Shown: positions 17,701 through 57,003 of the stretch, one piece after another | Layout: each line of letters opens with the position of its first letter | How positions within the stretch are numbered: the stretch's first letter is position 1 | Source of the DNA: Kiritimatiellia bacterium | GTDB lineage: Bacteria; Verrucomicrobiota; Kiritimatiellia; B70-G9 | Direction of reading: 5' to 3' | Length of the DNA stretch: 64,000 nucleotides | Assembly (NCBI GenBank): GCA_029934055.1 | Contig: JAOZMZ010000002.1 | Span: 14,489-78,488 of the forward strand | The notes under the pieces: generated by a model | Told to the model about the DNA's origin: nothing | The model's database searches: none | What the model saw: only the letters and a program-made list of their open reading frames with translations | Made by a program: the position numbers and the translations under genes

Positions 17701-20700
17701 GACCAGGACCCGATCACCGAAGAGGATCCGGTCGGCGCCGAAGGGTACAACAGCGGGCCGGTTTCCGACGAAAGCCTCATACAAATCGGAACACTTACCG
17801 AAGGACAGCAGGCGAGCAACGAGTGGGCCGTCGGCGCCGAGGGCATCAACGACGGTGCTGTAACCAACGTTACACGCGTAGCGATCGGCTCCGGTGCCAC
17901 CAACGGTCTCTTCTTCGACGGTCTCAATATCCCCGCCGGCTCCACCATCATCTCCGCTAACATGGACTTGAACATCACCGCCTACGGCGCCTCTACCAAC
18001 AACCTGCACATCGTCGGCGAATTGCTTTCCAATGGTCAATCCGATAACGACTACACCAACGATCCACCCAGCTATCGCCGCGTCTTCAGCGCATTCATCA
18101 GCTCGACCCAGGATTTCACCATCTCGGCGGCCGACCTCAGCGCCTTCAAAACCAACATCGACATCACCGCGATCGTCACCGAAATGGTGGCCCGGCCGGA
18201 CTGGGCAGCCCAAAGCGCCGGCTTCCTGATCTATGGAGAAACGCTGGGCGCCTCGAACGAACTACGGGTCGGAGAATCGGTCTTGCACGTAGTCTATCGC
18301 CAGCCGGCGGCGGAATATGACTACAACGGCTTCTTCTTCGATGACGTCTACTTGCGCACGAACTGCGAGGATATCCTTTCCGCTGAACTTGTTCTCGACC
18401 TGACCTCCACCGGCATCTCGTCCAACGACCTGCACCTGCGCGGCGAATTGTGGCTCGACGGCAAGTCTTCCGTAGACTACACCGGCATCCCCGTCACAAA
18501 CCGCTTGACGATGTCTCAGTTCCTGAGTTCCGAACTCCAGTTCACCGTCGTGGTCACCGGCTACACCGTCGTGGCCCTCGACGTCACTCCCATCATCGCC
18601 GAAATGCTCGCACAGGATAACTGGGCGGCCGAAAGCGCCGGCTTCATCCTCTGGGGGGACACTCACGGATCCACCCTCTATGAATATGCCGGCAAAACAA
18701 CCCTGCGCGTCACCTATCGGCCGGGCTACAAGAAGAAAGCCTACTGGACCAGCGGTACCCACGTCCAGATATCCGGAGAAATGCCCGGCGTTCGCAAGTC
18801 CGTCGTCCAGGTCTACGATTACAAGCGCGACCGGATAGTGGCCTTCGGAGGAATCGGAGGGCGTACCGTCTACGCCGACACCTACGAAGGAACTCCCGTC
18901 TGGAACGATCTGGACGGAGAAGTGGTCTATGCCGACCCGCAATCAATCGGCGATCCCCACATGATACTTTGGACCAAGATCATTCCCGCCCACAGTCCGC
19001 CGGCACGCTGGGGACACTGTATGGTCTACGACCCGGTCGACGAATGCGTCCTCCTGTTCGGCGGTTTCGACGCCGACAACCGCCCGCTCAATGATCTCTG
19101 GAAATACAAAGACGGCGACTGGAGTCATATCACGGTCTTCGAGGATTCCCAGGTGCCGCCCCCGCGCGGTGGAGCCTCGATGATTTACTTCGGCGCCTTC
19201 ATGTACGATCGCGGTTACGCCGACTATTGCCTCTCTTGCGATCACCAAGCCCCGGTCCTCTTCGGAGGTACGGACGGGTCCCACTACTTCAACGACACGT
19301 GGGTCTATGACTTCGAGTCCGCACGCTGGATCATGGTCAACCCCGACGGCGAACAATCTCAGGGGCCCCAACCTCGCGCCTTCGCGGTATTCGTCTTCGC
19401 CCAAAACGCCGGCTGGTCGCCGGATCCCGAAGGCACCGCAACCTACGAGGATCTCGACCCCGCCGACCGTTGCGCAACACCCGCAGCCTATCTCTTCGGC
19501 GGCCGTTGCGGCACGCTGCCGACGTCCGCCGATACGGACTACGATTACGTCAGCGATGGAGAAGAACACGCCATCGGCGGCCCGGCCGCCGGGCACGACC
19601 CGCGCGTCAATGCCCTGATCCCCAACACCGATACCAACGAAAGTCTGCCGTTCTGCTTCCTCCAAATCGGTTCTCTCGTGGCCGATACCGGCAGCCGCGG
19701 CACCATCGCCAACCTGGAAGCCCTCTCCTATGAGGAAGGGGATGACTCCGGTGACTACGCTCCCGCCTTTGATCTTCCCTTCCAGGGATACCCACTACAG
19801 CCCAACAGCAATACCAATATCTTCGATTCGGGCGTAGACGCACGACTCCCTCAGTTTACAAACCTGTGGTACCACCGTGACGGCGGCGACGACCCCTTCG
19901 GCCCCGGCAACGCCTGGGAACTCGGCATCCCCAACCCGGACGCCGTGGGCACCGACGCCGCCCCCGATCACGCCCACAGCGGACGCTGGTGCTTCGGAAC
20001 CGACCTCGACGGGCGTTACCCGGACGATGCTATCTGTGAACTGTATTCCCCGCTTTTCAGCCTCACCCTGCCGCCCGCCGCCGCCACTTGCTCCAATAAC
20101 CCGAACAGCTTCTTCCTCGTCTTCTATGAATGGCTCGACCTCCACGACACCAACGATGCCGTGCGCCTCGACGTCATCTGTCCGCGCACCCCCGCCGACA
20201 TCCTCACTCGATCCGGCACCAACGTGGTCAACATACTCTCCGACCGCAACAGCAATTATAATACTGACGGCGCCTGGCGCCGCGTCGTCGTCTCCCTCGA
20301 TCCGGTTGCCAACGAAAGCAATCTGTACCTCCGCTTCACCCTGCAATCCGACAATGACGGGAATGCCGGTGGATGGTACATAGACGACATCAGCATTCTT
20401 CAGGGCGCGGAAATCAGCGGCATTCTCTCCAACTCCAGCGCGCCCTTCGCCTACGGCGATGTGGCGGTATTCGGCGGAGATAACTTGGCCGGAGCCATGG
20501 ACGTCACCAAGACCGACGCCAACGGCTACTTCGAATTCGGCCTTCTGCCCCTCGGCGTCTATCGCGTCGCCACCGTCGGCACCCTTTTCGATCCCATCGC
20601 GATGAGCAGCACCGGCTGGAATTACACCCTCGGCACGTCCAGTATTCCGCCCCTCGTGGTCAGCACGGTCACCCCCGGCAGCCCGACGGCTATCGCCTGG

Positions 20701-29401: not shown

Positions 29402-29492
29402 TTATCCACATGAAAAGCTTGATCCCGCCCCGGGATGCAGCCCACTCTTTGTCTGTGTAATGTCACGACAAGGCAATGGGAGACAAACGCCT

Positions 29493-29987
29493 ATGGAAAC
29501 ATTTCAGGCAATCCGCGAACGCCATAGCACGCGCTCTTTCAGCAACCGGCCGCTGGAGAAAAAAGTCCTGGAATCACTAGTGGATGCCGGAAGGCTCGCC
29601 CCCTCCGGTCGCAACGAGCAGCCCTGGGAGTTCATAATCGTCACCCACCGCGGCACCCTGAAAATCATCGGCGGACTCGCCGATCACGGCGGCTTCATCG
29701 CCGACGCCGCGGCCTGCATCATCGTGCTTTGCCGCGACTCAAAGTACTATCTCGAGGACGGATCCGCAGCCACCCAAAACATCCTTCTGGCGGCGACCGA
29801 TCTCGGAATCCAATCTTGCTGGGTGGCCGGCGACAAGAAGGCCTACGCGGCCGAAATAGCGTCCCGTCTCGGCGTTCCGCAAGGCTACCGGCTGGTCTCT
29901 CTGATCGCCCTGGGATATGAAGATGAACCAACACCCCGCAAGAGCCATCGTCCGCTCAAAGAAGTTCTCCATTGGGAGCAATGGTAA
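29493..29987 (+). CDS. Nitroreductase-family protein
   Basis: The protein begins METFQAIRERHSTRSFSNRPLEKKVLESLVDAGRLAPSGRNEQPWEFIIV, a classic nitroreductase N-terminus (RxS(T)R...P...SxxNxQPW). Confidence 0.75.
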   Translation: METFQAIRERHSTRSFSNRPLEKKVLESLVDAGRLAPSGRNEQPWEFIIVTHRGTLKIIGGLADHGGFIADAAACIIVLCRDSKYYLEDGSAATQNILLAATDLGIQSCWVAGDKKAYAAEIASRLGVPQGYRLVSLIALGYEDEPTPRKSHRPLKEVLHWEQW

Positions 29988-38005: not shown

Positions 38006-38572
38006 CTAAGCTTCCAGAAAAGAGCGCATTTCTCCAGGCGCCTTGCGGATCTTTTCCCGCGGCTGATACCCGGGCGGCGGGTAGCCGGCGCAAATCATCA
38101 TGTCCACCCTCTCGCGGCGGCCCAACCCCAGCACCCGCTTGACCCCGCGCTCGCTGAACCATCCCAGCCAGCACGTCCCGATCCCCTCTTCGGCCGCCTG
38201 CAAGACGAAATGCTCCACCGCAATCCCTATGTCCACCAAGCTGTATTCGATCCCGCGCAGAGTGCCTCCCAGTCGCGCCGCGTAGCGCGCGCGGTCACGT
38301 ACAACCGCCACCAAGACCGGCGCCTGCCTGGCAAAGGAATTCATCCTGTAGATGCCGCCGAAGGCCGCCTTCCCCAGTTGCTCCCTCAGCGGATCGCGGT
38401 CAACCACCAGGAAGCGCCATGGCTGGGAATTGCAGGCCGAAGGCGCCAGCCGCGCCGCCTCCAGACAACGTTCTAACGTCTCCCGCGGCACGGCTCTCCC
38501 CCGGTCGTAGCAGCGCAAACTGTACCGTCGCCCGGCAAGCTCCAGGAACCCCTCGGACCGCCGCTCATTCAT
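38006..38572 (-). CDS. Nitroreductase-family protein
   Basis: RYSLRCYD...LERCLEAARLAPSACNSQPWRFLVV is the nitroreductase signature. Confidence 0.75.
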   Translation of the reverse strand: MNERRSEGFLELAGRRYSLRCYDRGRAVPRETLERCLEAARLAPSACNSQPWRFLVVDRDPLREQLGKAAFGGIYRMNSFARQAPVLVAVVRDRARYAARLGGTLRGIEYSLVDIGIAVEHFVLQAAEEGIGTCWLGWFSERGVKRVLGLGRRERVDMMICAGYPPPGYQPREKIRKAPGEMRSFLEA

Positions 38573-38622: not shown

Positions 38623-39831
38623 TCATCCATCCCGCAATCGGCCCCAAACCCATTCCAGCTCATCAGCAATATGCCGCTGGAGCGGTAGGTTCCGCAAATG
38701 CTCGGGTAGCACCGCAAACGTATACGTCTCTACTTCCAGATGCCTGCTCACCCCGCGGCGCAGTTCCTCCCAGAAACGCGGGCCCATGCTCCCCGGCAAG
38801 GTCGATCCCACCCCCTCGGAAGCCGACGGCGACCAGCCCAGGGGAACATGATAATGAACCCGCATGGTTCCGCCCTCAGCGGGCTCCCGCGCATCCCGCA
38901 GCACATCCGGCAAATCATCCCAGGCACGCCGCTCTTCTCCGCGAAGATATCGTACCTGATGCAGATACGTATCCTCCGCGAACGGCGCCAGCCGCTCACG
39001 CCAACCCGCATGCACATCAACCTCCAATCCGGCGCTGAGCTGGATCTTGGCGATCGCAATGCCCTTGCCCGTCAACAAGCGTATGCACTCCAGGGGATCC
39101 TCGAAGACAACCGCTGCATGACACGTATCCAGACACACGCCCACCCGGCGGCGCAGAATATCCTCTCCAGCCTCCCTGCGCATCCCGTAGCGCAACGCAA
39201 GCCGGCGCGCCGCCTGAGAAAAAAGCAGGTTCTCGAAAAACGCCGCGGTCTGCTCGCAGGACTCAAGCATGCAGCCCGGCTCCGGCTCGACCGCCAATAC
39301 TATCTCGCGCCCGCTGCTTTCGGCTATCCGTTCAAGTTCCCAGGCGGCTTGCGCATAGCCGTCGGCCACTGCCCGGACATGCTCGGCGCAACAGGCGTTG
39401 CGCCGCAGAGTTCCCGGCAGTGTGCTGATACTTGCCTGTCCCCCCTCCGGGAGCAGCCCCACCAGAATCCGCGCCAGACGTAGAGTGTATTCCACGCGCT
39501 CATCACTCCGCCAGTCGGGACTGTAAACCGAATACTTCACGTTCCCGCCATGGAAACGTCCCATCGGAAATCCGTTCAGGGTGAAAACGTAAAGGCCCCG
39601 CTCATGCAGGCCTGCCGCCAGATACGTGGTTTCCTCCTCCTTTTCCAGCTTGCGGGCGAGATCGTCCGGTATCCACAGCCCCAAGCCGACCGGTTCCCCT
39701 CTTGCAATTTCAGCTGCCGCCGGCAAGAAATACTCGTCCAATATCGCCAGCAGACCTGAAGAGTCGTCGGCCGCCGGGAGAACGTTGAGGCAATAGGTGA
39801 GTTCTATTTGTGGTTCACTGCTGACCAGCAT
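38623..39831 (-). CDS. TIM-barrel (xylose-isomerase-like) protein, candidate EboE-like
   Basis: About 400 aa. Its position directly after a DHQS-like gene and a UbiA/phosphodiesterase pair matches the ebo cluster content. The family call is by context plus composition and carries low certainty. Confidence 0.45.
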   Translation of the reverse strand: MLVSSEPQIELTYCLNVLPAADDSSGLLAILDEYFLPAAAEIARGEPVGLGLWIPDDLARKLEKEEETTYLAAGLHERGLYVFTLNGFPMGRFHGGNVKYSVYSPDWRSDERVEYTLRLARILVGLLPEGGQASISTLPGTLRRNACCAEHVRAVADGYAQAAWELERIAESSGREIVLAVEPEPGCMLESCEQTAAFFENLLFSQAARRLALRYGMRREAGEDILRRRVGVCLDTCHAAVVFEDPLECIRLLTGKGIAIAKIQLSAGLEVDVHAGWRERLAPFAEDTYLHQVRYLRGEERRAWDDLPDVLRDAREPAEGGTMRVHYHVPLGWSPSASEGVGSTLPGSMGPRFWEELRRGVSRHLEVETYTFAVLPEHLRNLPLQRHIADELEWVWGRLRDG

Positions 39832-39859
39832 CCATCAATCTCCCGCCAGCCGCCTGTAT

Positions 39860-41041
39860 TCAGCCCGGCACCCGTACTCCCGCAGCACGCCGCAGAACAG
39901 CCACGGCCTCTTCGACCAGGCCGGTCTCCAGCTGCGTTACTTCGGTCATCGAACCGAGACCGTCCGGGAAAACAAGCGTCAGCCGCCCCCCGATGTGTTC
40001 GCGAAACTCCTCCAGCCCATCCAGCAACACCAGGCGTCCATCCCCGTGGCGGAGTTCGAGTTTCTCATGGTACACCGGCAGCCCGCACCTGAGAAAGGCC
40101 TGCACCAAGTCATCAAAAACAGAGCGTTCCAGCATCCCCTCCCGCACCGCACACCAAGCGTCTATGGCAACACCGACGGCCACGGCCTGCCCGTGCCCCA
40201 GCCGGTAACTGCTCAGCGCCTCCAGCTTGTGTGCCGCCCAATGCCCGAAATCAAGCGGCCGCGCACGGCCGAATTCAAAAGGATCACCACCCCGCCGTAT
40301 GTGATCAAGATGCAATATCGCGCTGCGCCTGATTGTTTCCTCCATGGTTTCCATATCACGCGCGCGGAGGCGCTCCGCCGCACCGGTCAGGAATTCGAAA
40401 AAATCCGCGTCACGTATGAGCGCCACCTTGAACGCCTCCGCCACCCCCCCGATCCAGTGCTCGAACGGCAAGGAATCCAGCAAGGCAAAATCACTCAGTA
40501 CCGCCCAGGGAGCATTGAAGGTGCCGATGCTGTTCTTGACACCGTGCAGATTCATCCCCGTCTTCACCCCCACGCCGGAATCCGCCTGTGACAGCACCGT
40601 AGACGGCATGCGCACCGTCCGCAGGCCGCGGTGCGAAAGCGATGCGGCGAAGCCCACCGCGTCGAGCACCGCGCCGCCGCCGACCGCAAGAACGAACGAG
40701 TGCCGACACAAACGATACTCCAGGATAGTGTCCATAACCTCCATCAGCAGCCGATAATCATTTTTTATACCCTCACCCCCCGGAACCGTCCGCGGGGTCC
40801 GGACCAGATCAATGACGTCCGCGTTCGCGCGGCAATACTCCTCGACCACGGCCGCCAGCCCGGGACGCGCCGCGGCCAGTCCCCCATCCAGAAAACACAA
40901 CACTCGCCTGCGCCCGCCCTCCCCATCCTCGGTGAACACCTCCCGCAGGGTCCCATCCGCGGGATCGAACACGTTGCGCGCGAAGATCACCGGGTACCTG
41001 AATCTCACGGATATGTCTTGCCTGTATTCGCCCAATCTCAT
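39860..41041 (-). CDS. 3-dehydroquinate-synthase-like (sugar phosphate cyclase family) enzyme, EboD-like
   Basis: Gly-rich NAD-binding LAVGGGAVLDAVGFAA is present, along with metal-binding His/Asp regions typical of the DHQS superfamily. The start is taken at MRLGEYRQ (41041), which abuts the upstream gene with a 4-nt overlap. The ORF track extends to 41227. Confidence 0.7.
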   Translation of the reverse strand: MRLGEYRQDISVRFRYPVIFARNVFDPADGTLREVFTEDGEGGRRRVLCFLDGGLAAARPGLAAVVEEYCRANADVIDLVRTPRTVPGGEGIKNDYRLLMEVMDTILEYRLCRHSFVLAVGGGAVLDAVGFAASLSHRGLRTVRMPSTVLSQADSGVGVKTGMNLHGVKNSIGTFNAPWAVLSDFALLDSLPFEHWIGGVAEAFKVALIRDADFFEFLTGAAERLRARDMETMEETIRRSAILHLDHIRRGGDPFEFGRARPLDFGHWAAHKLEALSSYRLGHGQAVAVGVAIDAWCAVREGMLERSVFDDLVQAFLRCGLPVYHEKLELRHGDGRLVLLDGLEEFREHIGGRLTLVFPDGLGSMTEVTQLETGLVEEAVAVLRRAAGVRVPG

Positions 41042-42345
41042 TTTCCAAGCCCGCGGTCCAGCCTGTCGGCCACCGCCCGCGCCAGGGCGGTCAGCGAATC
41101 GGCCGAAACGTCTTCCAGCGACGTCGTCCAGGCCACTTCGGTTCCTTCGCCGTCCCGTCCATGCGATCCGCGCACGCGCGCAGGGTCGCTTCCCACCCGC
41201 ATCCAGGGCCCCAGGAAAAGCTCGCACGGGTCGTAACCCGGCTTGTTATGAATATCAACATGGGCGGCATAGTCGGGAGCCTCGCGCGCATCCTCCCACC
41301 AGGGATACGCGAACCAGTATCCCTTCGCCGCAACCAGTATCAGCTCGCCGCAGCGTGGATGGCGTATGCCCCGCTGCGCCTGCTCCTGCGGACCCAGCAC
41401 GGCTGCAATTTCCGGACGGTCACTGAAAAGTTCGCGCACCATCTCCAGGCGGTGCTCGTCACGGACATATATATGGGCAATCTGGTGATCCACCATCGCA
41501 AACGCCGGACTGCCGTAGAGGTCCGGATAGGTGCGCCGTCCCACGCGGCGCGCACTGAAAAAACCCGCCGCCCGCAGTATTCGGTTCGGATACAGCGGCC
41601 CGCCGGGAGTCTCTTCAATCGCATAATCTCCATAGAAAAGATAATCGTAGCCGGCCTCGCGCGCGACACGGGCAAGATCCTCAAGCCACCGGTACACCTT
41701 CTGCAGCGCGCGGCGGGCGTGCCGCCCGCCGGTACCGTGACGCTGCAGGTCATAATCAAGATGCGGAATGTAACCCAGGACCAGCTCCGGGGCATGCATG
41801 TCCCGCTCCAATAACAACGTGCTCAGCGCCTCCGTGATCCAGGCCGATGAACGCTGCGATGCCAGCGGCCCCCAGTAGTGCATCAGGTTGAAATCACGTC
41901 CGATCCGCCGGGCAAGTTCCCGGTACAAATGCGGCGGGCGACTGTAGAAGGACTGAATCATTCCGCCTTCATGTTTGTGAATCGGCGCCGGCGACAAGAC
42001 CAGGTCTACATCCTCACCGAGACTTTGTTGCCAGAACATCATTCCAACCCCGCCGCCGCCGCTGCGGAAACGCGACCAGATACGGGGCCCGTCAACCAGA
42101 AACGCCGATTGCTCCCAGAACATCGCCCGCCGTAACTCCCGCGAGTAGTAACCATTGGCCACCATGCCGTGGGCCCCCGGAGACGACGCCGTCCGAAACG
42201 AGGCCTGCACCGGACATGTCAGGGCCGGGAAGACCGTGGCCGCACGCCGAAAAACAAGTTCCTGCGATGACGGTGGATACTTCCGTACCAATTCCCACCC
42301 CAACGCCGCTACCTGGACCACCAGCAATTTTCCCTGTGCGTTCAT
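41038..42345 (-). CDS. Alkaline-phosphatase-superfamily enzyme (nucleotide pyrophosphatase/phosphodiesterase type), EboF-like
   Basis: About 435 aa with an alkaline-phosphatase/NPP-like core. It is flanked by UbiA-family and DHQS-like genes. Confidence 0.55.
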   Translation of the reverse strand: MNAQGKLLVVQVAALGWELVRKYPPSSQELVFRRAATVFPALTCPVQASFRTASSPGAHGMVANGYYSRELRRAMFWEQSAFLVDGPRIWSRFRSGGGGVGMMFWQQSLGEDVDLVLSPAPIHKHEGGMIQSFYSRPPHLYRELARRIGRDFNLMHYWGPLASQRSSAWITEALSTLLLERDMHAPELVLGYIPHLDYDLQRHGTGGRHARRALQKVYRWLEDLARVAREAGYDYLFYGDYAIEETPGGPLYPNRILRAAGFFSARRVGRRTYPDLYGSPAFAMVDHQIAHIYVRDEHRLEMVRELFSDRPEIAAVLGPQEQAQRGIRHPRCGELILVAAKGYWFAYPWWEDAREAPDYAAHVDIHNKPGYDPCELFLGPWMRVGSDPARVRGSHGRDGEGTEVAWTTSLEDVSADSLTALARAVADRLDRGLGK

Positions 42346-42369
42346 CGTCAGCCTGTGCCGCTTTCCTCT

Positions 42370-43272
42370 TTAACTGCCACTAATCCGACGGCCTGTCCAG
42401 CGGTTCAAAAACCATCCGACGACAAGAACCCCACATACACCCGCCGCCGCACCTCCCGAGTCTACCCATATGAAGGCACATTGCAACGGAATCAGCCCGC
42501 CCACCATCGCCCCGACGGCCGCCGGCCTGCCGGCCACCGGACCGACCAACTCCCGACTCGCAACGATCGCAATCCCCAGGGCCGCACCGGCGAAGAAGAG
42601 CCCCCCCGCCAACCCAACCCCGCCTGCCGTCGAAAGCACCCCCACTCCGGCAACCACTATCGCCGCGGGCACAAGCCATCTGACTCCCCGTAACTGCTCC
42701 TCACCGGTCTCGACACGCGCCACATACGTTACCGCGCCCACCACCACGGCCATCGCCCCGCAGACCGTCATCACCCGCGGACTCTTCCAGGCCACACCGG
42801 CAACCGATGCCCCCAACATCACGCTCAGCCCCCGGCAGATACCCATCATCACCGCCCCCCACAACCCACGTTCCTTGAGAAAGAAATCATACGCCAGAAT
42901 CGCCGCCAGCAACAACAGCCCCGTCACTGCCGTGGCCCATCCTGCCTGTATGCAAAAAATCAGCGCCAGAGCCGGCAGCCCGGACGCCGCCACCGCCACC
43001 CCCCCGGCATCAAGACGCCCCGAAGGCAGCGGACGCGAGGGACGGGACCGCCGATCTCTCTCAATGTCCGCCAGATCATTGAAGAGTAATCCCGCCGCAT
43101 ACAGAAACAGTGCCGCCGCCGCCACCGGCGCGACCGCGCGTAAGGTCCCCCGCCCCGCACTGGCCGCAAGATATCCTACTACCGGATCCCCCGGGACGGT
43201 AAACAGGTTCGGCAACCGCAATATCTCCAGCCACGCTTTCAGCCGCATTCCGAAGTTTCGCTTCACCGTCAC
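42370..43272 (-). CDS. UbiA-family aromatic prenyltransferase, EboC-like
   Basis: A multi-TM protein with the Asp-rich motif NDLADIERDRRSRPSRPLPSG (NDxxDxxxD). Length is about 300 aa. Confidence 0.75.
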   Translation of the reverse strand: MTVKRNFGMRLKAWLEILRLPNLFTVPGDPVVGYLAASAGRGTLRAVAPVAAAALFLYAAGLLFNDLADIERDRRSRPSRPLPSGRLDAGGVAVAASGLPALALIFCIQAGWATAVTGLLLLAAILAYDFFLKERGLWGAVMMGICRGLSVMLGASVAGVAWKSPRVMTVCGAMAVVVGAVTYVARVETGEEQLRGVRWLVPAAIVVAGVGVLSTAGGVGLAGGLFFAGAALGIAIVASRELVGPVAGRPAAVGAMVGGLIPLQCAFIWVDSGGAAAGVCGVLVVGWFLNRWTGRRISGS

Positions 43273-43348
43273 TCACGCCCCCAAAAAAACGCCCTTCATA
43301 TGCCGACCCCCCCACCGCGCTTCAACGTCCCCTCTCCCGCCCGCGCCG

Positions 43349-45400
43349 TTACTGGTACAGCCACCACTCAAAGGCTGCGTGCTGGCCGACGATCTCGATC
43401 CAAGGATGATTCCCCTTCACTGCACGCGCCGGAATCCTCATCGCCGCTTCGGTAAAAAGGGATCCTTCCTTCAAACTGCAATCGCACTCGGTGGCCTTGA
43501 CCCCGTCCACGAGCACCTCCAGGTGCAACGGCGAAACAAAATCGAAACGCAAATTGCGCCGCAGACCGCGATGATACACCACCGGCGCCGTCACCGCCGC
43601 CGCCGTCCGCAGCACCAAGACGACTTCCCGTTCGGGCACGAGCGCCGCCCGGAACCTCTCGGAAGTCAGGAATACCCGCCCGACATCCACGAATTCCTCC
43701 CCGCCGCTGCGCCCCCTCATCACCACCGGTCCCAGTCGCAGAGGACCCGACCAGCCCTGCCCCGTGCATTCGTGTCGCTGCTCATCTTTGCGGTAGCCGA
43801 TATCAATCCCATCCACCAGCCGCCGGCCGCTCACGATCTGCAACACCTCCGGATCCTGCACTCCGCGCCCGCCGTCCAAAAGGGACCAGTCCGCCCTGAC
43901 CGCTTCCAGGCGCAATCCCTCCGGAAAAACCAGGCGTTCCCTGAGTATCTCAGGCCCCCTTACAAAGCGAACCAGCGCAGATACCTCTTCGCTGCGCGAA
44001 AAGACCAGCACGTCCGGGCGGGTCGCGGGTTCGCGGCGCAGAATCTCAATGTTGCAGGCGACATCCGCCCGCCCGGCAAAACGCGGCGATACGTATCCGC
44101 CGAGATGTACCAGCCGCCGCCCCGGCATGCAGAACGCCAGACCGGGATAATTCAACACTCCCACGCTGTCGCCCTGCGGGATTCCCGCATCCAGCGCCCG
44201 CGCGAACCTGCAGTGCAACGCCGTCGAATAGACCCCCTCGGCGTGTTCGGCGACGAAAAAGGGAAAAGTCACCAACTGATACCCGACCAGCATCGCTCCC
44301 ACCCCCATGCGTAGACGCCGGTCATGTACAAGAGACAAACCGCAGGCGGCCGCCGCCAGCCACCCGGGCCATAGCCACGCCAGATGGCGGTCGAATTGAT
44401 AACCCTGCCAGCCGCCCGCCGCATTCAACAACAGGGCCCCCGCCGCCGCGACCCCCCATATCGAAAACACGCGCCGACCGGCCGCGCTCCGAACAAGGAA
44501 AAGCCCTCCCAACGCCGCCGCACCCGTGACCAACGGTAGCGCATAGACCTCACGCCCGGACCCCAGGCCGAATATCATTCCCACTACCAGCCGGGCGAAA
44601 TCAACCGTACTCGCCGCAAGCGCGCCCGATACCGGCAGGTGTACGAAATATCCTTTCCGCAGCAGCGACTGGAACAACGGCGTGCCGGTCAGCACCCGAT
44701 TCCATCCCGCAACCGCCGCAACATTCAACAGCCCGAAAATTCCCGCCGCCAACCAGCGGCGCTCATGCCGCAATACGGCGACTATACTCACCGCCAACCC
44801 AAGCAGCAGACCTTCCGGCCGCGACCACGCCGCCAGCCCAAGCAGAATCCCCCCCGCGAACGCCCGATCCCATACGGCCGCCACCAAAAGCGCCGTCACC
44901 ACGAAGGTGAAAAGCCCCATGTCGGTCCGTCCCAAAAGCGCATAGGCCAGCACCCCGCTGCTCAATGCCAGGATCCCCCCCCAGCCTGCCGCCGCCCGTT
45001 CCACCCGCACGGCGATCAGCCAAACACCGGCCACGACCAGCAGGTAAAAGACGGCATTGAGAATGAAATCCGCGATCCCGAGCGCGAGCGCATCGCCGTG
45101 CAACAGGGCACACACCGCCAGTAACACCGGATAGAGATGGCTGCTGCTGCCCGTGCTCACACCGGCCCCGGGAGTGAATTCGTAGGCATGCCCCCCCGCC
45201 GCCGCCCTGGCATACTCCAGAAACATCAGCGTGTCCGGCTGGGGCGCACCCGGCGGACCGTTCATTTCCCCACACGACATTTCAACCGCCAGGAAAATCG
45301 AAACCACCAGTGTCCCGGCCGAAAGGAGCAGCAGGAACGCTTCCCTGGCCCGCGGTCCACCCGCAGCACTACTCCGCCTTGACTGTTGTGCGGACATCAC
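43349..45400 (-). CDS. Polytopic membrane protein with a large C-terminal soluble domain, possibly a GT-C-fold glycosyltransferase
   Basis: About 10 predicted TM helices occupy the first ~400 aa, including conserved Arg/Asp residues in loops. The C-terminal ~280 aa are soluble. No confident family assignment. Confidence 0.4.
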   Translation of the reverse strand: MMSAQQSRRSSAAGGPRAREAFLLLLSAGTLVVSIFLAVEMSCGEMNGPPGAPQPDTLMFLEYARAAAGGHAYEFTPGAGVSTGSSSHLYPVLLAVCALLHGDALALGIADFILNAVFYLLVVAGVWLIAVRVERAAAGWGGILALSSGVLAYALLGRTDMGLFTFVVTALLVAAVWDRAFAGGILLGLAAWSRPEGLLLGLAVSIVAVLRHERRWLAAGIFGLLNVAAVAGWNRVLTGTPLFQSLLRKGYFVHLPVSGALAASTVDFARLVVGMIFGLGSGREVYALPLVTGAAALGGLFLVRSAAGRRVFSIWGVAAAGALLLNAAGGWQGYQFDRHLAWLWPGWLAAAACGLSLVHDRRLRMGVGAMLVGYQLVTFPFFVAEHAEGVYSTALHCRFARALDAGIPQGDSVGVLNYPGLAFCMPGRRLVHLGGYVSPRFAGRADVACNIEILRREPATRPDVLVFSRSEEVSALVRFVRGPEILRERLVFPEGLRLEAVRADWSLLDGGRGVQDPEVLQIVSGRRLVDGIDIGYRKDEQRHECTGQGWSGPLRLGPVVMRGRSGGEEFVDVGRVFLTSERFRAALVPEREVVLVLRTAAAVTAPVVYHRGLRRNLRFDFVSPLHLEVLVDGVKATECDCSLKEGSLFTEAAMRIPARAVKGNHPWIEIVGQHAAFEWWLYQ

Positions 45401-45486
45401 CGGCCATATTTTCCCCCAAGGCGGGGGATGTCAAGAAGCCGCAATTCGGCTATCCTGCCCCGCCGCAACAGTGTACATTGTTATCC

Positions 45487-48204
45487 GTGAGTCGGATCGT
45501 CACAGGACTACTGCTTCTCGCAATTCTGGCTCTCTCCGCCTCCGCCGGCGGCGGACCCGAAAACGTCCTCATCGTCGTCAACGACAACAGCAGCCGTTCG
45601 CTCGAAATCGGCCAGTACTATCAGGATGCCCGCGGAATCCCCGAACGGAATATATGTCACCTGAACACCACCACGAACTATTCGATCGACACCGCCGCCT
45701 TCACCAACCAGATCCGCCGGCCGATCTTCGATTACATCGCCCAGGCCGGTCTCAGCGGGCAGGTGGACTACATAGTCTTCTCCGTCGACTTTCCTTACCG
45801 GGTGTATCTCACCGGCTCGAGCTACAACACCAACAGCCTCACCGGGGCGATGTTCTACGATTACAAGAACTCGCCCCCGCCATGCTCACTGCCCCCTGCG
45901 GCGCTGAGCAGCTATTATGAAGCCGAAGAGGCTTTCTCCCATACCGGAACCACCGGCAACGGCTCCCTCTATATCAGCTCCATGCTCACCGCCTGGGACC
46001 TGGACCAGGCCCGCCGGCTCGTGGATCGCGCCGCCTCTGCAGACGCTGCCTGCCCCACGGGAACCACCTACTACCTGCGCCCCCCGGACAACGACCGCAA
46101 CGTCCGCTGGCACCAGTTCGAAGGCGCAATGTATCCGGTGCGTTTCCTCGCCGTCCCGCGCAGCAGTCAATACCTGGCCGCCTGGTACATCCAGGGGAAG
46201 AACGACGTCATCGGTTACATGCTCGGACGCACCCAAACCGAGCACCTCGACGACAATGTCTTCCTTCCGGGCGCACTCGCGGATCTGCTCACATCCTACA
46301 GCGGGTATCTCTTCGACAACCCCTGGGGGGCCCCTTCCTCCTGCCTGGAATGGATCCGCGTCGGCTGCGCCGGCACCTACGGCACGGTCGTCGAACCCTG
46401 CAACTACACCAACAAGTTTCCCCAGGCCCGCCTCCATTACTGGTACGCGCGCGGCTTCAGCATGGGCGAAGCTTTCACCATGTCGGTCCAGGCTCCATAC
46501 CAGGGCATCCTTGTCGGCGACCCCCTCTGCCAGCCGTATTCGCGCGGCCCGCTGGTGACGGTGGACGGACTGACGGACGGCCAAACGGTAACCGGCAGCG
46601 TGTCGGTCACAGTCACCAGCTTGTGCGCAACCGCCCAAGGTTCCATCAGCCGGATAGACCTCTTCCTGGACGGCCTGCGCATCGCCGTGCTCACGAATGT
46701 CGCCGTGACCCCCCTCAACGTCGTCACGGCCACTATCAACGGGCAGGACTGTACCTACCTCGTCCAGTCCGGCGACCGCCTCCCCGACGTGGCTTCCGGC
46801 CTGGCTTCCGCCATCAATAACAACGCCACCGGCGTGACCGCCCGCTCCTCCGGAGACCGCGTCGAAATCGTCCAGGACGCCCTGGGCGTCTCCGGAACCG
46901 GCATGACCTACAGCGCGACCACCTCCACCAACAGTTTCCTCGGCGGGGATTTGACGACCTTCGCCTGGACACCCGGCACGAACTTCGCCGAGACCACCTT
47001 TTTCGCCCGCCAGCGTATCGTCATCCACGGGGCGGTGGAATCCGGCGACATTGTCCGCGCCGTCATAACGCGCCTCGACGGCGCCGTCTTCACCAACGAA
47101 GCCGTCGCCGACGCCGACGACTCCAGCCGTGACCTGATGGAAAAACTCCACGTTGCCATCAATAACGACACCAACCTCCAAGGCACCGGGGGAGCATGGA
47201 TGCGCTACGTCGGCACCAACAAGGCCAGCAGCGACGTCGAGGCATACATCGAGGCGCGCACAAACACGTGGGACTCCTACAACATCTATCTCGATTACCA
47301 GGTCATCGGCCCGGACGGATCAAACTACAGCGGCCGACTGACCAGCAACGCCGACGTCATGGGCGCCCGCGCGGAAATTATGCTCACCGAGGGACGCACC
47401 CAGCTCGTCGCCGGTTACGTGCTCGATACCACGACTTATCCGGACGGGCCGCATACGCTGGCGGCGGTCGCCTATGACGGCTCGGCGGTGCGCGCCCAGG
47501 GACGGCGGGATATCTCCTTCAGCATAAGCAACAGCTCCCTCTCCTGCTGGATCGAAGAACCAACCCGCGGAAAACTCTTCGACTGGGGCGCAATGGTCAC
47601 GGTCTCGGTCAATGCCGCCGGCGGCACGGTCACCGGCATCACGCTCTTCGTGGAAGGCAAGCAATACGCCCTCACCAATACCCTCCCGGCCGTTTTCATC
47701 TGGGACACCTCGCAGTTCGGCCCCGGGCTGGTGGGGATCCAGGCGCGCGCCTGGCCCCCCTCCGGACCCGGCGCCCTCAGCGATGAAAAGCTCGTCCGCG
47801 TTCAAATTGACCGGGACGCGGACGACCTGCCCGACTGGTGGGAGTATGCCTGGTTCGGCGCGGCCACCACCACCACCGGATCCGCCGACGATGACGGCGA
47901 CGGCGCATCGAACCGCGCTGAATTCCTCGCCGATACACAGCCCACGAACACATCCCACTTCTTCGGCATCACCAATATCCTCCGCCGGGGTACCGGGGAC
48001 TCCACACGCATAACCTTCATCAGCAGCACCCAGCGGCTCTACAACATCTTCCTCAAGGACGCCCAGTTGTGCTCCACCCAGAACTGGTACGCCGCCGAAA
48101 CGAATTCCTTCTGGGGGGAGGAAGCGGATACGACCTGGTCGGATGACAGTGCTGACCCGACCGGCGGCCTGCGCTTCTACCGCGTCCGAGCCGAACTGCC
48201 GTAA
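45487..48204 (+). CDS. Secreted protein (about 905 aa) with Ig/FN3-like modules, a TSP3 repeat and the shared C-terminal FN3-like tail
   Basis: GTG start at 45487 gives the signal peptide VSRIVTGLLLLAILALSASA. The N-terminal block ENVLIVVNDNSSRSLEIGQYYQDARGIP resembles an uncharacterised family I have seen in PVC genomes. TSP3: DDDGDGASNRAEF. C-terminus: ...GGLRFYRVRAELP. Confidence 0.7.
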   Translation: MSRIVTGLLLLAILALSASAGGGPENVLIVVNDNSSRSLEIGQYYQDARGIPERNICHLNTTTNYSIDTAAFTNQIRRPIFDYIAQAGLSGQVDYIVFSVDFPYRVYLTGSSYNTNSLTGAMFYDYKNSPPPCSLPPAALSSYYEAEEAFSHTGTTGNGSLYISSMLTAWDLDQARRLVDRAASADAACPTGTTYYLRPPDNDRNVRWHQFEGAMYPVRFLAVPRSSQYLAAWYIQGKNDVIGYMLGRTQTEHLDDNVFLPGALADLLTSYSGYLFDNPWGAPSSCLEWIRVGCAGTYGTVVEPCNYTNKFPQARLHYWYARGFSMGEAFTMSVQAPYQGILVGDPLCQPYSRGPLVTVDGLTDGQTVTGSVSVTVTSLCATAQGSISRIDLFLDGLRIAVLTNVAVTPLNVVTATINGQDCTYLVQSGDRLPDVASGLASAINNNATGVTARSSGDRVEIVQDALGVSGTGMTYSATTSTNSFLGGDLTTFAWTPGTNFAETTFFARQRIVIHGAVESGDIVRAVITRLDGAVFTNEAVADADDSSRDLMEKLHVAINNDTNLQGTGGAWMRYVGTNKASSDVEAYIEARTNTWDSYNIYLDYQVIGPDGSNYSGRLTSNADVMGARAEIMLTEGRTQLVAGYVLDTTTYPDGPHTLAAVAYDGSAVRAQGRRDISFSISNSSLSCWIEEPTRGKLFDWGAMVTVSVNAAGGTVTGITLFVEGKQYALTNTLPAVFIWDTSQFGPGLVGIQARAWPPSGPGALSDEKLVRVQIDRDADDLPDWWEYAWFGAATTTTGSADDDGDGASNRAEFLADTQPTNTSHFFGITNILRRGTGDSTRITFISSTQRLYNIFLKDAQLCSTQNWYAAETNSFWGEEADTTWSDDSADPTGGLRFYRVRAELP

Positions 48205-50571: not shown

Positions 50572-51705
50572 CTATTCCTCCCCCGCCAGGCACCGGCGGA
50601 TGCTTCGATCCAACCCCTCCAGGAAACTCCGCAGGCTGAATCTCAGTACGCTCGCCCGAATCTTTTCCCCGTCCCAACTGCGCCGCGCACATTCCTCCAC
50701 CGCCGATATCAGCGCATCCTCGCGCTGCTCATCGAAAAAAACCCCGCCGACGCCTTCCTCGACGGATTCGAGCACACCACCGGCCGCATACGCCACCACC
50801 GGCCGCCCGCACGCCTGCGCCTCAACCGGTACCAGCCCGAAATCCTCTTCCCCCGGAAAAACCAGACAGCGACACCCGCGGTACAACTCCCGCACGGCTT
50901 CGTCGGGCTGTCTCCCAAGAAAGGTGATGTTCTCCGCCGCCATTCTCCTGAGACGTTCGTATTCCGTCCCCGTGCCGACGATCACCAGCGGATACCCCGT
51001 CCGGCTGTAGGCCCGCACCGCCAGGTCAATGCGCTTGTACGGTACCAGCGCGGACACGATCAAATCATATTCGCCGCCCGTACCCGGCCCCGGAGTGAAC
51101 CACTCCAAATCCACCGGCGGATAGACCACGTCGGCCGGGCGCTGATAGCAGGACTCGATCCTGCGCTGCACGTTGCGGCTGATGGCGACGAAGCGGTCCA
51201 CCCGGCGCGACGAGCGCCGGTCCCACTCGCGCAGGCGCCCCAGCAACGGACTCAGCAGGCCCTGCTTGAGGCGGCTCTTTCCGAAATACTCCTCGTAGAA
51301 CACCCATACGTAACGCATCGGCGTAAAGCAGTAACATAGATGCCGCATTCCCGGCGGCGGCCTGATTCCCTTCGCCACGCAATGACTGGTGCTGATGAGT
51401 ATGTCCGCCTCCGGCGGCCGGAACCGCTCGACCAGATACGGCATCACCGGCAGAAACATCCGGTAGTGACGCCGCGCGCCCGGTACCTGTTGCAACAGGG
51501 ATGTGTGAACCGGGTGCCGATTGATCGTCCCGCTGACGGCGCCGGGATCGTGCAGCATGGTGAATATGGGCGCCCGTGGAAACGCCCGGCAAAGAATCTC
51601 CAGCACGCGCTCGCCCCCGCGCATCCCCGTCAGCCAGTCGTGGGAAAGCACCACCTCCAGCGACTCCCACGTGCGTGGATACAGATTCTCCTCTCCCGGA
51701 CTCAT
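50572..51705 (-). CDS. Glycosyltransferase family 4
   Basis: The C-terminal GT4 EX7E region is EDFGLVPVEAQACGRPVVAYAAGG. Confidence 0.8.
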   Translation of the reverse strand: MSPGEENLYPRTWESLEVVLSHDWLTGMRGGERVLEILCRAFPRAPIFTMLHDPGAVSGTINRHPVHTSLLQQVPGARRHYRMFLPVMPYLVERFRPPEADILISTSHCVAKGIRPPPGMRHLCYCFTPMRYVWVFYEEYFGKSRLKQGLLSPLLGRLREWDRRSSRRVDRFVAISRNVQRRIESCYQRPADVVYPPVDLEWFTPGPGTGGEYDLIVSALVPYKRIDLAVRAYSRTGYPLVIVGTGTEYERLRRMAAENITFLGRQPDEAVRELYRGCRCLVFPGEEDFGLVPVEAQACGRPVVAYAAGGVLESVEEGVGGVFFDEQREDALISAVEECARRSWDGEKIRASVLRFSLRSFLEGLDRSIRRCLAGEE

Positions 51706-52862
51706 GTCTCCTCCTCCCCGCGGGCGGCGCGGTAGACTTTCTCCGTCTCGCGGGCGGCGCGTTCCCAGGAAAATTGCGCCGCGCGCCGCAGACCCTTGCG
51801 CCGCAAATCCTCCGCCAGCCCCCTGTCAGTCAGCACCGCCGTGATGCCCGCAGCCAGGGCCTCCACGTCGTCCAGCTCCACGAACAAGGCGGCATCTCCG
51901 GCCACCTCGGGAAGCGAGCCCGCCCGCGTACACACAACCGGCGTGCCGCACGCCATGGCCTCCAGTACGGTCAGCCCGAAGCCCTCCGCCCGCGACGGCA
52001 ACACGTATACCGCAGCCGTCCGATAGGCTTCAACCAGCTCGTCGGTATCCAGATACCCGTCCCAACTGACGAACGCCCCCAGCCGCAATGCCTGCACCCG
52101 TTCCTCGGCCTCCGGATAACGCGCGTCGGCAGGACCCACTACCCGCAGGCGCACCCCGTCCACCTTCTGCCGGACCAATGCAAACGCCTCGACCAGCAAC
52201 GCCAGGTTCTTGTAAGGATCACGCCGGCCGACGTACAGAATCACCGCCTCCGGCCCGTCCCATCCCTCCCCGGTTCCGCCCGGGCTGAAACGGGGATCCA
52301 CCCCCTCCGGCACAACCCACACACTGCCCGCCCGCTCCGGCCCGATCTTCAGCTCCCTGAGCACGTCGGCCCGCGTCGCCCCGCTGGGACAAATTATGGC
52401 ATCCGCCCGCCGCCCCACCTCCCGCATGATCCAGCGGTAAAGCCAAAAAAAACGCCGCTTGCGCGCCCGCGGCGCATGATCCGGATATACCAGGGGAATC
52501 ACGTCATGCAGCGTCACCACGCAGGCCGTCCGCCCCCTGCGACCGGCCGGAAACGCCGCCAGTGGTATCATGTAGTTCGGCGCATGATAGACTTCCACCC
52601 CCTCGCGCCGCAACAACGCCGGCAGACTTACCTGGGCCCGCATGTCAAACGGCCCGTAGTCCACCAGCAAGGACTTCGCCCTTGCGGCCGCCGGCGGCCC
52701 GATGGCGTTCAGCGTCCGCCGCCGGACTTCGGGATCATCGAAGAGCAACAAATACTCGTTCTCCGCCCCCCCGCGAATCAGCGCCGCCGCCAGTTCGGCG
52801 GTGTACTGCCCGACTCCGCTCAACTCCCGGAATATCCAGCGACAATCCAGTAAGACCCTCAT
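51702..52862 (-). CDS. Glycosyltransferase family 4
   Basis: EGFGLTVLEAMACGTPVVCTRAGSLPEV is present. The start is taken at [10 protein letters not shown]. The ORF-track extension to 53015 is Gly-rich and improbable. Confidence 0.8.
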   Translation of the reverse strand: MRVLLDCRWIFRELSGVGQYTAELAAALIRGGAENEYLLLFDDPEVRRRTLNAIGPPAAARAKSLLVDYGPFDMRAQVSLPALLRREGVEVYHAPNYMIPLAAFPAGRRGRTACVVTLHDVIPLVYPDHAPRARKRRFFWLYRWIMREVGRRADAIICPSGATRADVLRELKIGPERAGSVWVVPEGVDPRFSPGGTGEGWDGPEAVILYVGRRDPYKNLALLVEAFALVRQKVDGVRLRVVGPADARYPEAEERVQALRLGAFVSWDGYLDTDELVEAYRTAAVYVLPSRAEGFGLTVLEAMACGTPVVCTRAGSLPEVAGDAALFVELDDVEALAAGITAVLTDRGLAEDLRRKGLRRAAQFSWERAARETEKVYRAARGEEET

Positions 52863-53989
52863 TCGCGCCTTTCCCTCAACACCGCCCGGTAAACCTCCAT
52901 CGTCCGCCGCGCCGTCTCCTCCCAGCGGTACCCCGCCGCCCGTCGCAGACCCCGCTCCTTCAGTCCCTCCCGATACGCGGAATCGCTCAACACCCGCCGC
53001 AGGTGAAGCGCCCATTCATCCGCATCGAACCCTTTCACCAGATCGGCACCGTCCCCCAATACCTCCGGCAGGGACCCGGTTGCCGCCGCCACCACCGGAG
53101 CCCCGCAGGCCATCGCCTCCAGCGGCGGCAGGCCGAACCCTTCATACAGCGACGGAAAGACGAACACGTCCGCGGCCGCATACAGGGCCCGCAGATCAGC
53201 ATCCGCCAATCCTTCCAGGTGCCTGATGGCGACCGCCCGCGGCGAACTGCGCATCCTCTCGAAAATCGGCCCGAATTTCCAGCCGCGCCTGCCCACCACG
53301 ACCAACTCGCCCCCATACTCCTCCAGACGCTCAAACACCTCGATCAGGAAAACGATGTTCTTGCGCGGCTCGATGGTCCCAACGGTCAATATGTACGGCC
53401 GCTCCAACCCCCGGCGCCGCCGCACCGCCGCCGTCTCGTCCGCGGACGGCGCCCGCATCGCCGGGTCCACTCCCAGATGAATCGGGTGCAGCTTCTCCCG
53501 CGCCACCCCCAGCAGATCATGAATCTCATCCGCCGAAAAACGCGAATCGGTTATGATCGCGTCCGCCCGCGCCGCCGTCGCCCCGATCCGCGCCCGCAGG
53601 TAGCGCAGATTGCCCCTCTCCGTGGTTTCCGGAAAACGCAGGAAAGAAACGTCGTGGATCGTCGCCACCGCCGCCGAATTTCCCAGCGGCGGCAGAATGA
53701 AATTCGGGAAATGATAGACGTCCGCCGCCCCCGCCAGCCGTTCGAACGCCGGCGGCAGCCCGTGTTTCCACAACCCCTGCACGACCCGCCCCGGTATCCA
53801 GCGAACCACCCGCTCGACCGTGCGCGCCGCCCGCAAGGCGCGCCCCCGCCGCCTGAAATCAAAATAGAACGCCACCAGCTCGTCCCCCCCGCCGAGGAAC
53901 AACGGCAGATACTCCACCAGCGAACGCGTGTAACGCCCGACACCCGCCCCTTGACTCACCGCAGCCTGGACATCAATACATATTCTCAT
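52859..53989 (-). CDS. Glycosyltransferase family 4
   Basis: [28 protein letters not shown] is present. The start is taken at MRICIDVQA. Confidence 0.8.
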
Positions 53990-54162
53990 CCCTGCCAGCT
54001 CCCGGCACCGACGCCGCCCACTCTCATCCCCTGCATTATGCACCATTCCGTCCCCCAGTCCACCCATCCACGCCCCCCCACAAGGGAGGATTCGACTTTC
54101 AACTCCTAGTCCGGCGCCCTAAAATAAGAACGCATACTAACCAGAACGGAGACTCTAGCAAC

Positions 54163-57003
<2,841 letters not shown>

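Follow-up and report, generated by a model that had tools for sequence, protein, structure and literature searches.

Clusters of ebo genes are known from bacteria and from plastids. The canonical operon, eboABCDEF, occurs in Bacteroidota, Cyanobacteria and eustigmatophyte plastids (Yurchenko 2016, PMC5133447; Klicki 2018, PMC6282210), and ebo genes were earlier proposed to serve in exporting the scytonemin monomer in Nostoc (PMC6282210) or, as the EDB cluster, in repelling nematodes (PMC12904256). In May 2026, a preprint assigned ebo to the biosynthesis of thallusin, an algal morphogen, and saccharoquinoline (10.64898/2026.05.21.724671; hereafter, the preprint), recorded 3,304 genomes with a total of 3,403 ebo clusters, and named Verrucomicrobiota and Planctomycetota among the phyla carrying them. 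In this work, we analyzed a 64,000-nucleotide stretch of a Kiritimatiellia bacterium genome (contig JAOZMZ010000002.1, assembly GCA_029934055.1; hereafter, the window), in which four consecutive genes are likely to represent eboC, eboF, eboD and eboE, a compact ebo biosynthetic set for a saccharoquinoline/thallusin-type pathway, arranged in the order typical of the Planctomycetes-Verrucomicrobia-Chlamydiae (PVC) group.

An earlier note on this stretch, made without database searches, had described a minus-strand run from 43272 to 38623 encoding a UbiA prenyltransferase, a nucleotide pyrophosphatase/phosphodiesterase (NPP), a cyclase resembling 3-dehydroquinate synthase (DHQS) and a TIM-barrel protein, preceded by a membrane protein and followed by a nitroreductase. 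The positions of the open reading frames (ORFs) and their Pfam and NCBIfam families agree with this description throughout, as follows (aa, amino acids).

43349-45400, minus strand: membrane protein with a predicted glycosyltransferase C (GT-C) fold, 682-683 aa, GTG start with an alternative ATG at 45397, matched by no Pfam or NCBIfam model
42370-43272, minus strand: UbiA protein (eboC-like), 300 aa, Pfam PF01040 (9e-20)
41038-42345, minus strand: phosphodiesterase of the NPP/alkaline-phosphatase superfamily (eboF-like), 435 aa, PF01663 (3e-32)
39860-41041, minus strand: DHQS-like sugar-phosphate cyclase (eboD-like), 393 aa, PF01761 and PF24621
38623-39831, minus strand: xylose-isomerase-like TIM barrel (eboE), 402 aa, NCBIfam TIM_EboE (5e-105)
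38006-38572, minus strand: nitroreductase-family flavoprotein, 188 aa, PF00881 (1e-33)

The statement that these genes abut or overlap by 4 nucleotides (nt) holds for the NPP and cyclase genes only. Their overlap, ATGA at 41041-41038, requires the cyclase to start at ATG 41041 and not at the first GTG (41227), and it is at ATG 41041 that the alignment with homologues of the cyclase begins. Elsewhere the genes are separated by gaps, of 76 nt between the membrane protein and UbiA, 24 nt between UbiA and NPP, 28 nt between the cyclase and EboE, and 50 nt between EboE and the nitroreductase, downstream of which lie genes for Hsp20 and Lon. For UbiA, a start at GTG 43272 (300 aa) stands beside the NCBI call at ATG 43248 (292 aa). 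A promoter scan found no sigma-70-like sites, and terminator-like matches at about the level of shuffled sequence, and was uninformative on operon boundaries. Four consecutive genes of ebo families, with hidden Markov model E-values of 1e-30 to 1e-146, would far exceed what chance juxtaposition could account for.

We then focused our attention on the family assignment of the four proteins, which for EboE and the EboD-type cyclase is based on scores above curated NCBIfam cut-offs, and for the NPP and UbiA proteins on orthology. The TIM-barrel protein scored 351 bits on TIM_EboE (NF035939; cut-off 250), in a match that spans positions 1-378 of the 379 in the model; on it, reference EboE proteins reach 422-432 bits, and several of the 2060 EboE homologues found carry the name EboE at source. 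The cyclase scored 488 bits on NF004852 (cut-off 333), as compared to 204 bits on the aroB model TIGR01357 (cut-off 305). Four reference cyclases taken from within ebo clusters (from a PVC-type metagenome-assembled genome of unassigned phylum, Hyphomicrobiales, Deinococcaceae and Desulfatiglandales) behaved alike, with 504-578 bits on NF004852 and all under the aroB cut-off. NF004852, which is labelled "3-dehydroquinate synthase", thus appears in practice to be the EboD model, and the window cyclase is best classed as an EboD-clade member of the DHQS superfamily and not as AroB. The earlier note had held that best hits of the cyclase and the TIM barrel in aro, val or inositol pathways would speak against an ebo cluster; this affinity was looked for, and ebo models were matched instead.

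NCBIfam offers no curated model for EboF. More than 25 PVC-group loci encode, immediately upstream of EboD-EboE, an NPP with which the window protein shares 47-56% identity (370-520 bits), as compared to about 35% identity and about 240 bits against proteobacterial-type EboF. The nearest non-self homologue of the UbiA protein (P0007, 43% identity) lies within a cluster of the composition TatD-UbiA-NPP-(methyltransferase)-DHQS-TIM barrel, and UbiA scores 86-153 bits against the UbiA proteins of PVC-group clusters versus 32-59 bits against the proteobacterial type. Searches against PDB sequences returned DHQS as the best match of the cyclase, at only about 1e-36, and for UbiA only digeranylgeranylglyceryl phosphate synthase, at 7e-13, while no solved relatives were found there for EboE or EboF. 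The preprint works with a definition of an ebo cluster as at least four of nine target proteins, with neighboring hits at most six ORFs apart (10.64898/2026.05.21.724671), and the contiguous C, F, D and E genes of the window fall under it.

To place this arrangement, an alignment-based scan of GTDB species representatives was used, an exact-peptide search for close EboE relatives among GTDB representative contigs having returned none. The scan gave 80 EboE loci, whose ORFs were searched with the window proteins and with the EboB of one locus. PVC-type orders among them were B-C-F-D-E (8 loci), C-F-D-E (4), F-D-E (12), B-F-D-E (1) and C-B-F-D-E (1), mostly in Chthoniobacteraceae, Kiritimatiellae, Victivallales, Lentisphaerota, Planctomycetaceae and Phycisphaerae, with single loci in Fibrobacteria and Desulfatiglandales. 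Proteobacterial-type loci (Proteobacteria, Myxococcota and Deinococcaceae) had either the order F-B-D-E-C, or D-E-C accompanied by inverted F and B; the scores of the window NPP and UbiA proteins with the PVC type are two to three times those with this one. The order C-F-D-E, which had been called non-canonical, is therefore unusual only relative to eboABCDEF; (B)-C-F-D-E or F-D-E is standard in Verrucomicrobiota, Kiritimatiellae, Lentisphaerota and Planctomycetota, and C-F-D-E is a normal order for the PVC group. An O-methyltransferase was considered as a regular accessory of PVC ebo loci and discarded, as it was present in only 4 of the 80 loci and is missing from the window.

The closest described systems are accordingly the PVC-group loci themselves, which share with the window the four genes, their order and their orientation, the apparent lack of eboA, and an eboB that is sometimes unlinked. 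Identities to the window proteins are 47-56% for NPP, 45-55% for the cyclase, 37-45% for EboE and 35-47% for UbiA. The differences are that eboB is adjacent in 8 of the 12 loci carrying C-F-D-E, which is not the case in the window, that the window EboE lacks an HPGE-x-W motif, and that the flanking genes are not the same. In relation to the canonical eboABCDEF operon, EboC, EboD, EboE and EboF are homologous, whereas the window has the order C-F-D-E, no evident eboA or eboG, no eboB within 64 kb, and a UbiA protein far under the EboC cut-off. The scattered ebo genes of Stieleria maiorica Mal15 offer another PVC-superphylum case without evident eboA and with unlinked eboB, but in the window the four genes stay close together, two of them overlapping by 4 nt. 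Actinomycetota-type ebo clusters (ino1-3 and a SCO3242-family prenyltransferase) have no eboD and use inositol genes, unlike the window, which has eboD and no ino genes; the resemblance lies in the window UbiA, which scores slightly better on the SCO3242 model (123 bits, under the cut-off of 260) than on the EboC model. Finally, the EDB cluster of Pseudomonas fluorescens NZI7, implicated in nematode repellence (PMC12904256), contains six ebo homologues, including a cyclase and a prenyltransferase, but it has three extra genes and a proteobacterial-type order, and the window proteins score against proteobacterial-type members at about half the PVC-type values. Altogether, the locus is an ordinary PVC-type ebo cluster.

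The product of ebo had been described in the earlier note as unknown, which is outdated in view of the preprint, and a prenylated cyclitol or membrane-anchored small molecule had been suggested, where the literature implies a farnesylated, cyclitol-derived quinoline. UbiA-297/EboC farnesylates 8-hydroxyquinoline-2-carboxylate (8-HQA) (PMC9235831), and the preprint reports that trihydroxyquinaldic acid is also farnesylated by EboC, that EboC homologues from three phyla farnesylate quinolines, that L-aspartate enters the quinoline ring, and that eboB is one of four core genes, together with eboC, eboE and eboF, whose deletion abolishes thallusin in the planctomycete Stieleria maiorica (10.64898/2026.05.21.724671). 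The preprint observed thallusin as a derivatized ion of m/z 500.26. In such a pathway, a cyclitol and L-aspartate would give a hydroxylated quinaldic acid, with EboB, EboE and EboF required. The membrane prenyltransferase EboC would then farnesylate the quinoline, and may also cyclize the farnesyl chain, and the farnesylated quinoline would proceed through saccharoquinoline to thallusin or a close relative. The window genes would supply the cyclitol, two tailoring steps and the prenylation step, with DEI made from mannose-6-phosphate as the proposed product of the cyclase.

Several observations weigh against this assignment, and they concern the literature it draws on, the UbiA protein, eboB, EboE and a sister strain. 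The thallusin assignment comes from a preprint that is not peer-reviewed, and the producers tested there included no strain of Verrucomicrobiota (10.64898/2026.05.21.724671). In addition, the UbiA protein scored 105 bits on the EboC model NF035940, short of the cut-off of 250, and the match ends at profile position 210 of 292; its best NCBIfam model is the SCO3242 family (NF045897), matched over the full length at 123 bits, again short of the cut-off (260). Seven other UbiA genes from ebo clusters had the same two models on top, at 97-158 bits, and the EboC cut-off was missed by all eight UbiA proteins tested, from PVC, proteobacterial and deinococcal clusters, at 97-141 bits. As all the other UbiA proteins tested outside the canonical type fail too, the shortfall reflects a narrowly trained model, and NF035940 appears to be tuned to the canonical ebo type, with a cut-off that would not discriminate outside it.

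A further difficulty is that eboB was not found in the window: when three PVC-group EboB proteins were searched against the translated 64 kb, no E-value was better than 0.5, and no TatD domain was present among the 31 window ORFs scanned against Pfam and NCBIfam, in agreement with the earlier note, to which no TatD-like EboB had been evident. EboB is highly conserved across PVC loci (65-77% mutual identity). Stieleria maiorica requires eboB, and the gene must therefore be located outside the 64-kb window, or else the pathway is incomplete. In the PVC group, eboB and eboC are commonly unlinked: in two other Verrucomicrobiota loci (L037 and L046) the 5-6 kb upstream of C-F-D-E contain no eboB, in Chthoniobacter flavus a UbiA gene stands alone, and one locus (L007) consists of D-E only. 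EboB may act in trans from outside the window, as would be the case for the F-D-E and C-F-D-E loci of other Verrucomicrobiota. As for eboA and eboG, for which no aimed search was made, the gaps within the cluster (at most 76 nt) are too small for either gene; no eboA was seen in the B-C-F-D-E loci, and eboA is unidentifiable in most Planctomycetota (10.64898/2026.05.21.724671).

The remaining difficulties arise from the EboE protein and from a sister strain. Positions conserved in at least 95% of 35-40 homologues per protein were compared, and the window proteins keep 84 of 87 such positions in the cyclase, 68 of 70 in NPP, and 19 of 21 in UbiA, including N65, D66, D69 and D73 of the first Asp-rich motif (NDxxDxxxD). 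EboE keeps 73 of 85, and its 12 departures comprise H10E, H18L, G21A, E22D, W24S, R53W, H229R and five others. The family motif H-LTYCLN(I/V)-HPGE-x-W reads E-LTYCLNV-LPAADDSS here, which makes the window EboE the sole member without HPGE-x-W among the 41 compared; this motif, R53 and H229 are each present in at least 38 of 40 EboE homologues, and all of them are altered in the window. A frameshift or assembly error was considered as the origin of this N-terminus and rejected, as the motif occurs in no other frame and the DNA of an independent Logan assembly is identical. The conserved acidic and histidine positions E182, E184, D235, H238, H291, H326, H328, E366 and E368, putative metal ligands, are retained, and the loss of the motif may mark an altered substrate pocket.

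All four ebo ORFs are of full length and free of stops. The same arrangement was found in one other place only, a JGI contig of a sister strain (L148) at about 99% identity (0.4-1.9% nucleotide divergence), which is not independent evidence of conservation. With the few substitutions that this divergence provides, the ratio of non-synonymous to synonymous substitution rates (dN/dS) against this contig is 0.18 for NPP and 0.14 for the cyclase; for UbiA it is about 0.2, with substitutions counted by eye after removal of a 1-nt indel, and the four genes pooled, with these by-eye counts included, also give about 0.2. For EboE the ratio is 0.84, but it comes from just 7 substitutions (5 non-synonymous and 2 synonymous). 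Moreover, eboC of the sister contig (L148:12010-12903) carries a 1-nt insertion and an adjacent substitution (at about 42583 in the window), which put the sequence beyond about residue 230 out of frame; an error in assembly could explain this, as could a genuine inactivation in the sister strain.

We then evaluated the two genes that flank the ebo set, for which the earlier note had described the upstream membrane protein as GT-C-like. The family of this protein comprises 409 representatives when clustered at 50%, with members of about 680 aa. An AlphaFold2 model computed from a 53-sequence alignment (predicted local distance difference test, 92.7; predicted TM-score, 0.92) was compared to the PDB with Foldseek, and all 27 matches at E-values of at most 1e-3 were GT-C enzymes (ArnT, AglB, PglB, STT3, ALG9, ALG12, Emb and DPY19), with ArnT (5f15), AglB (3wak), ALG12 (9s6t), EmbC (7bve) and PglB on top. 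The GT-C fold is confirmed in this model, and the protein can be described as a predicted GT-C-fold glycosyltransferase with a periplasmic C-terminal beta-sandwich domain. Its organization, with a polytopic N-terminal module and a periplasmic C-terminal domain, is that of ArnT, PglB/AglB, ALG9/ALG12 and EmbA-C, which it matches at a Foldseek probability of 1.0 and TM-scores of 0.4-0.56. It differs from them in that identity is only 11-15% and in that its C-terminal beta-sandwich matches CBM6/CBM35 modules in Foldseek. As in those enzymes, an invariant aspartate follows the first transmembrane helix: D55, invariant in 53 family members and located just after that helix (residues 15-42), is predicted to be the catalytic acidic residue of the first extracytoplasmic loop. 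The NCBI and JGI calls for this gene are 643 aa long and start 39 residues downstream of ATG 45397, while homologues align from about residue 18-25 and residues 15-42 form a confident first transmembrane helix in the AlphaFold model; the deposited annotation probably truncates this helix.

The earlier note had included these two genes in its description of the cluster, and a conserved association with ebo is not borne out by the comparative survey. Homologues of the GT-C protein or of the nitroreductase were present in none of the 80 EboE loci. Conversely, no ebo gene was found near GT-C homologues in 62 loci, of which 58 were metagenomic (507 kb) and four were looked up singly, including that of the closest homologue (45% identity). 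The GT-C protein as a conserved ebo partner or a substitute for EboB was ruled out by these two independent surveys and the four single contexts, and the nitroreductase was discarded as an ebo partner on the 80 loci. The nitroreductase scored 117 bits on PF00881 (cut-off 23.5) and reached no NCBIfam equivalog (BluB, 66 versus a cut-off of 150). A paralogue of 175 aa is encoded on the plus strand at 29460-29987, about 8 kb from the copy beside eboE, which fits a common paralogous family in this genome and not an ebo-specific partner. Both flanking genes would thus adjoin the ebo genes by an accident of genome layout, outside the system.

In the metagenomic GT-C loci, a family of small ORFs detected by blastp recurs in 17 of the 58 (L089, L095, L104, L133, L139, L140, L141 and others), and in 13 the GT-C gene has, at a distance of at most about 2.5 kb, an ORF whose N-terminus is of the prepilin type (GFTLVE). 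These neighbors hint at glycosylation of pilins or pseudopilins by the GT-C family; PVC genomes are very rich in prepilin-like genes, a single study contributed many of the GT-C loci, and no such ORF occurs in the window.

Other explanations of the locus were weighed against an ebo set for a saccharoquinoline/thallusin-type pathway. The cyclase and TIM-barrel genes could belong to primary shikimate, inositol or valiolone-type cyclitol metabolism beside an unrelated UbiA gene, as the depositor label of NF004852 and the DHQS matches among PDB sequences would suggest. We rejected this explanation, to which we attach next to no probability, on model scores and synteny, as the cyclase falls short of the aroB cut-off but scores high on the model matched by every ebo-embedded EboD tested, the TIM barrel matches an EboE equivalog, and the four-gene synteny recurs across dozens of genomes. 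Another explanation is that the locus is a decaying, non-functional remnant, whose genes have been drifting since eboB was lost. This would be in line with the absence of eboB from the window, with the loss of invariant EboE residues and the 5 non-synonymous against 2 synonymous differences to the sister strain in this gene, and with the frameshifted eboC in the sister contig. We consider it unlikely, since the four ORFs are complete and without internal stops, near-invariant residues are 90-97% retained in the cyclase, NPP and UbiA, the cyclase and NPP have dN/dS ratios of 0.14-0.18, the putative metal-ligand positions of EboE are intact, and unlinked eboB is normal in this phylum group.

About equally improbable is that the six co-directional genes from GT-C to nitroreductase form a lineage-specific operon for a product other than thallusin, e.g., a cyclitol or sugar donor linked to polyprenyl phosphate, for transfer to an envelope acceptor by the GT-C enzyme. 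An analogy exists in mycobacteria, where a UbiA-family decaprenylphosphoryl-5-phosphoribose synthase and a phosphatase work with the Emb GT-C enzymes. The six genes lie on one strand throughout, with gaps of only 76 and 50 nt to the flanking genes and no convincing terminator in between, and the GT-C enzymes matched in fold use lipid-phosphate-linked donors. The window lacks eboB, and the near-invariant EboE residues that are altered (H10, H18 and R53 lost; H229 replaced by Arg) could mean a changed substrate; the arrangement is also kept in the sister strain, though this is only about 1% divergent. Against this, none of the 80 ebo loci contains a GT-C or nitroreductase homologue, none of the 58 metagenomic and four further GT-C contexts contains an ebo gene, the GT-C family is found in some loci near small prepilin-like genes instead, and EboC homologues of three phyla farnesylate quinolines and do not act on a polyprenyl phosphate. 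Still less probable is a rewired ebo system of a deep-branching PVC lineage, free of EboB, with a remodelled EboE pocket (H10E, H18L, E22D, W24S, R53W and H229R) and with co-transcribed GT-C and nitroreductase genes, making a different cyclitol-derived prenylated product; this might be linked to a lipid, and the GT-C enzyme might transfer or glycosylate it at the envelope. The comparative data argue against GT-C, ebo and nitroreductase genes as one unit.

With the four genes assigned to eboC, eboF, eboD and eboE, one further and rather divergent PVC-lineage genome joins the catalogued ebo carriers, its four proteins being at most 45-56% identical to anything else found. If the thallusin assignment is true, the organism is a candidate producer of the algal morphogen or of a related farnesylated quinoline. 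The locus also illustrates how automatic annotation of such clusters misleads, since the EboC cut-off misses every non-canonical EboC protein tested and NF004852 is mislabelled. Moreover, the window EboE is a natural variant without HPGE-x-W, which could help to find the EboE reaction, and the GT-C gene represents an uncharacterized family of about 400 clusters that lacks a matching Pfam or NCBIfam model.

Beyond the ebo locus and its flanks, the window contains the following features.

8710-20868, plus strand: giant ORF of 4052 aa
24326-29401, plus strand: giant ORF of 1691 aa, with an MdoG-like periplasmic glucan biosynthesis domain
45310-48204, plus strand: secreted protein of 964 aa, TIGR03790 (160 bits), with a bacterial Ig domain and a weak match to the Akkermansia Amuc_1099 pilus-like system
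50572-54067, minus strand: three consecutive genes for GT4-family glycosyltransferases
54163-57003, plus strand: molybdoenzyme gene of the aldehyde-oxidase/xanthine-dehydrogenase type, adjoining the GT4 genes

The gene of the 964-aa secreted protein is divergent from the GT-C gene, and the two ORFs overlap when read from their first starts; the true starts of both are probably internal. The GT4 genes lie about 5 kb from the GT-C gene, which suggests an envelope polysaccharide neighborhood. The loci giving the best matches point to an affinity of the window with the PVC superphylum. A search of the 64 kb with Rfam at the gathering threshold returned a single match, a tRNA gene at 630-703 on the plus strand.

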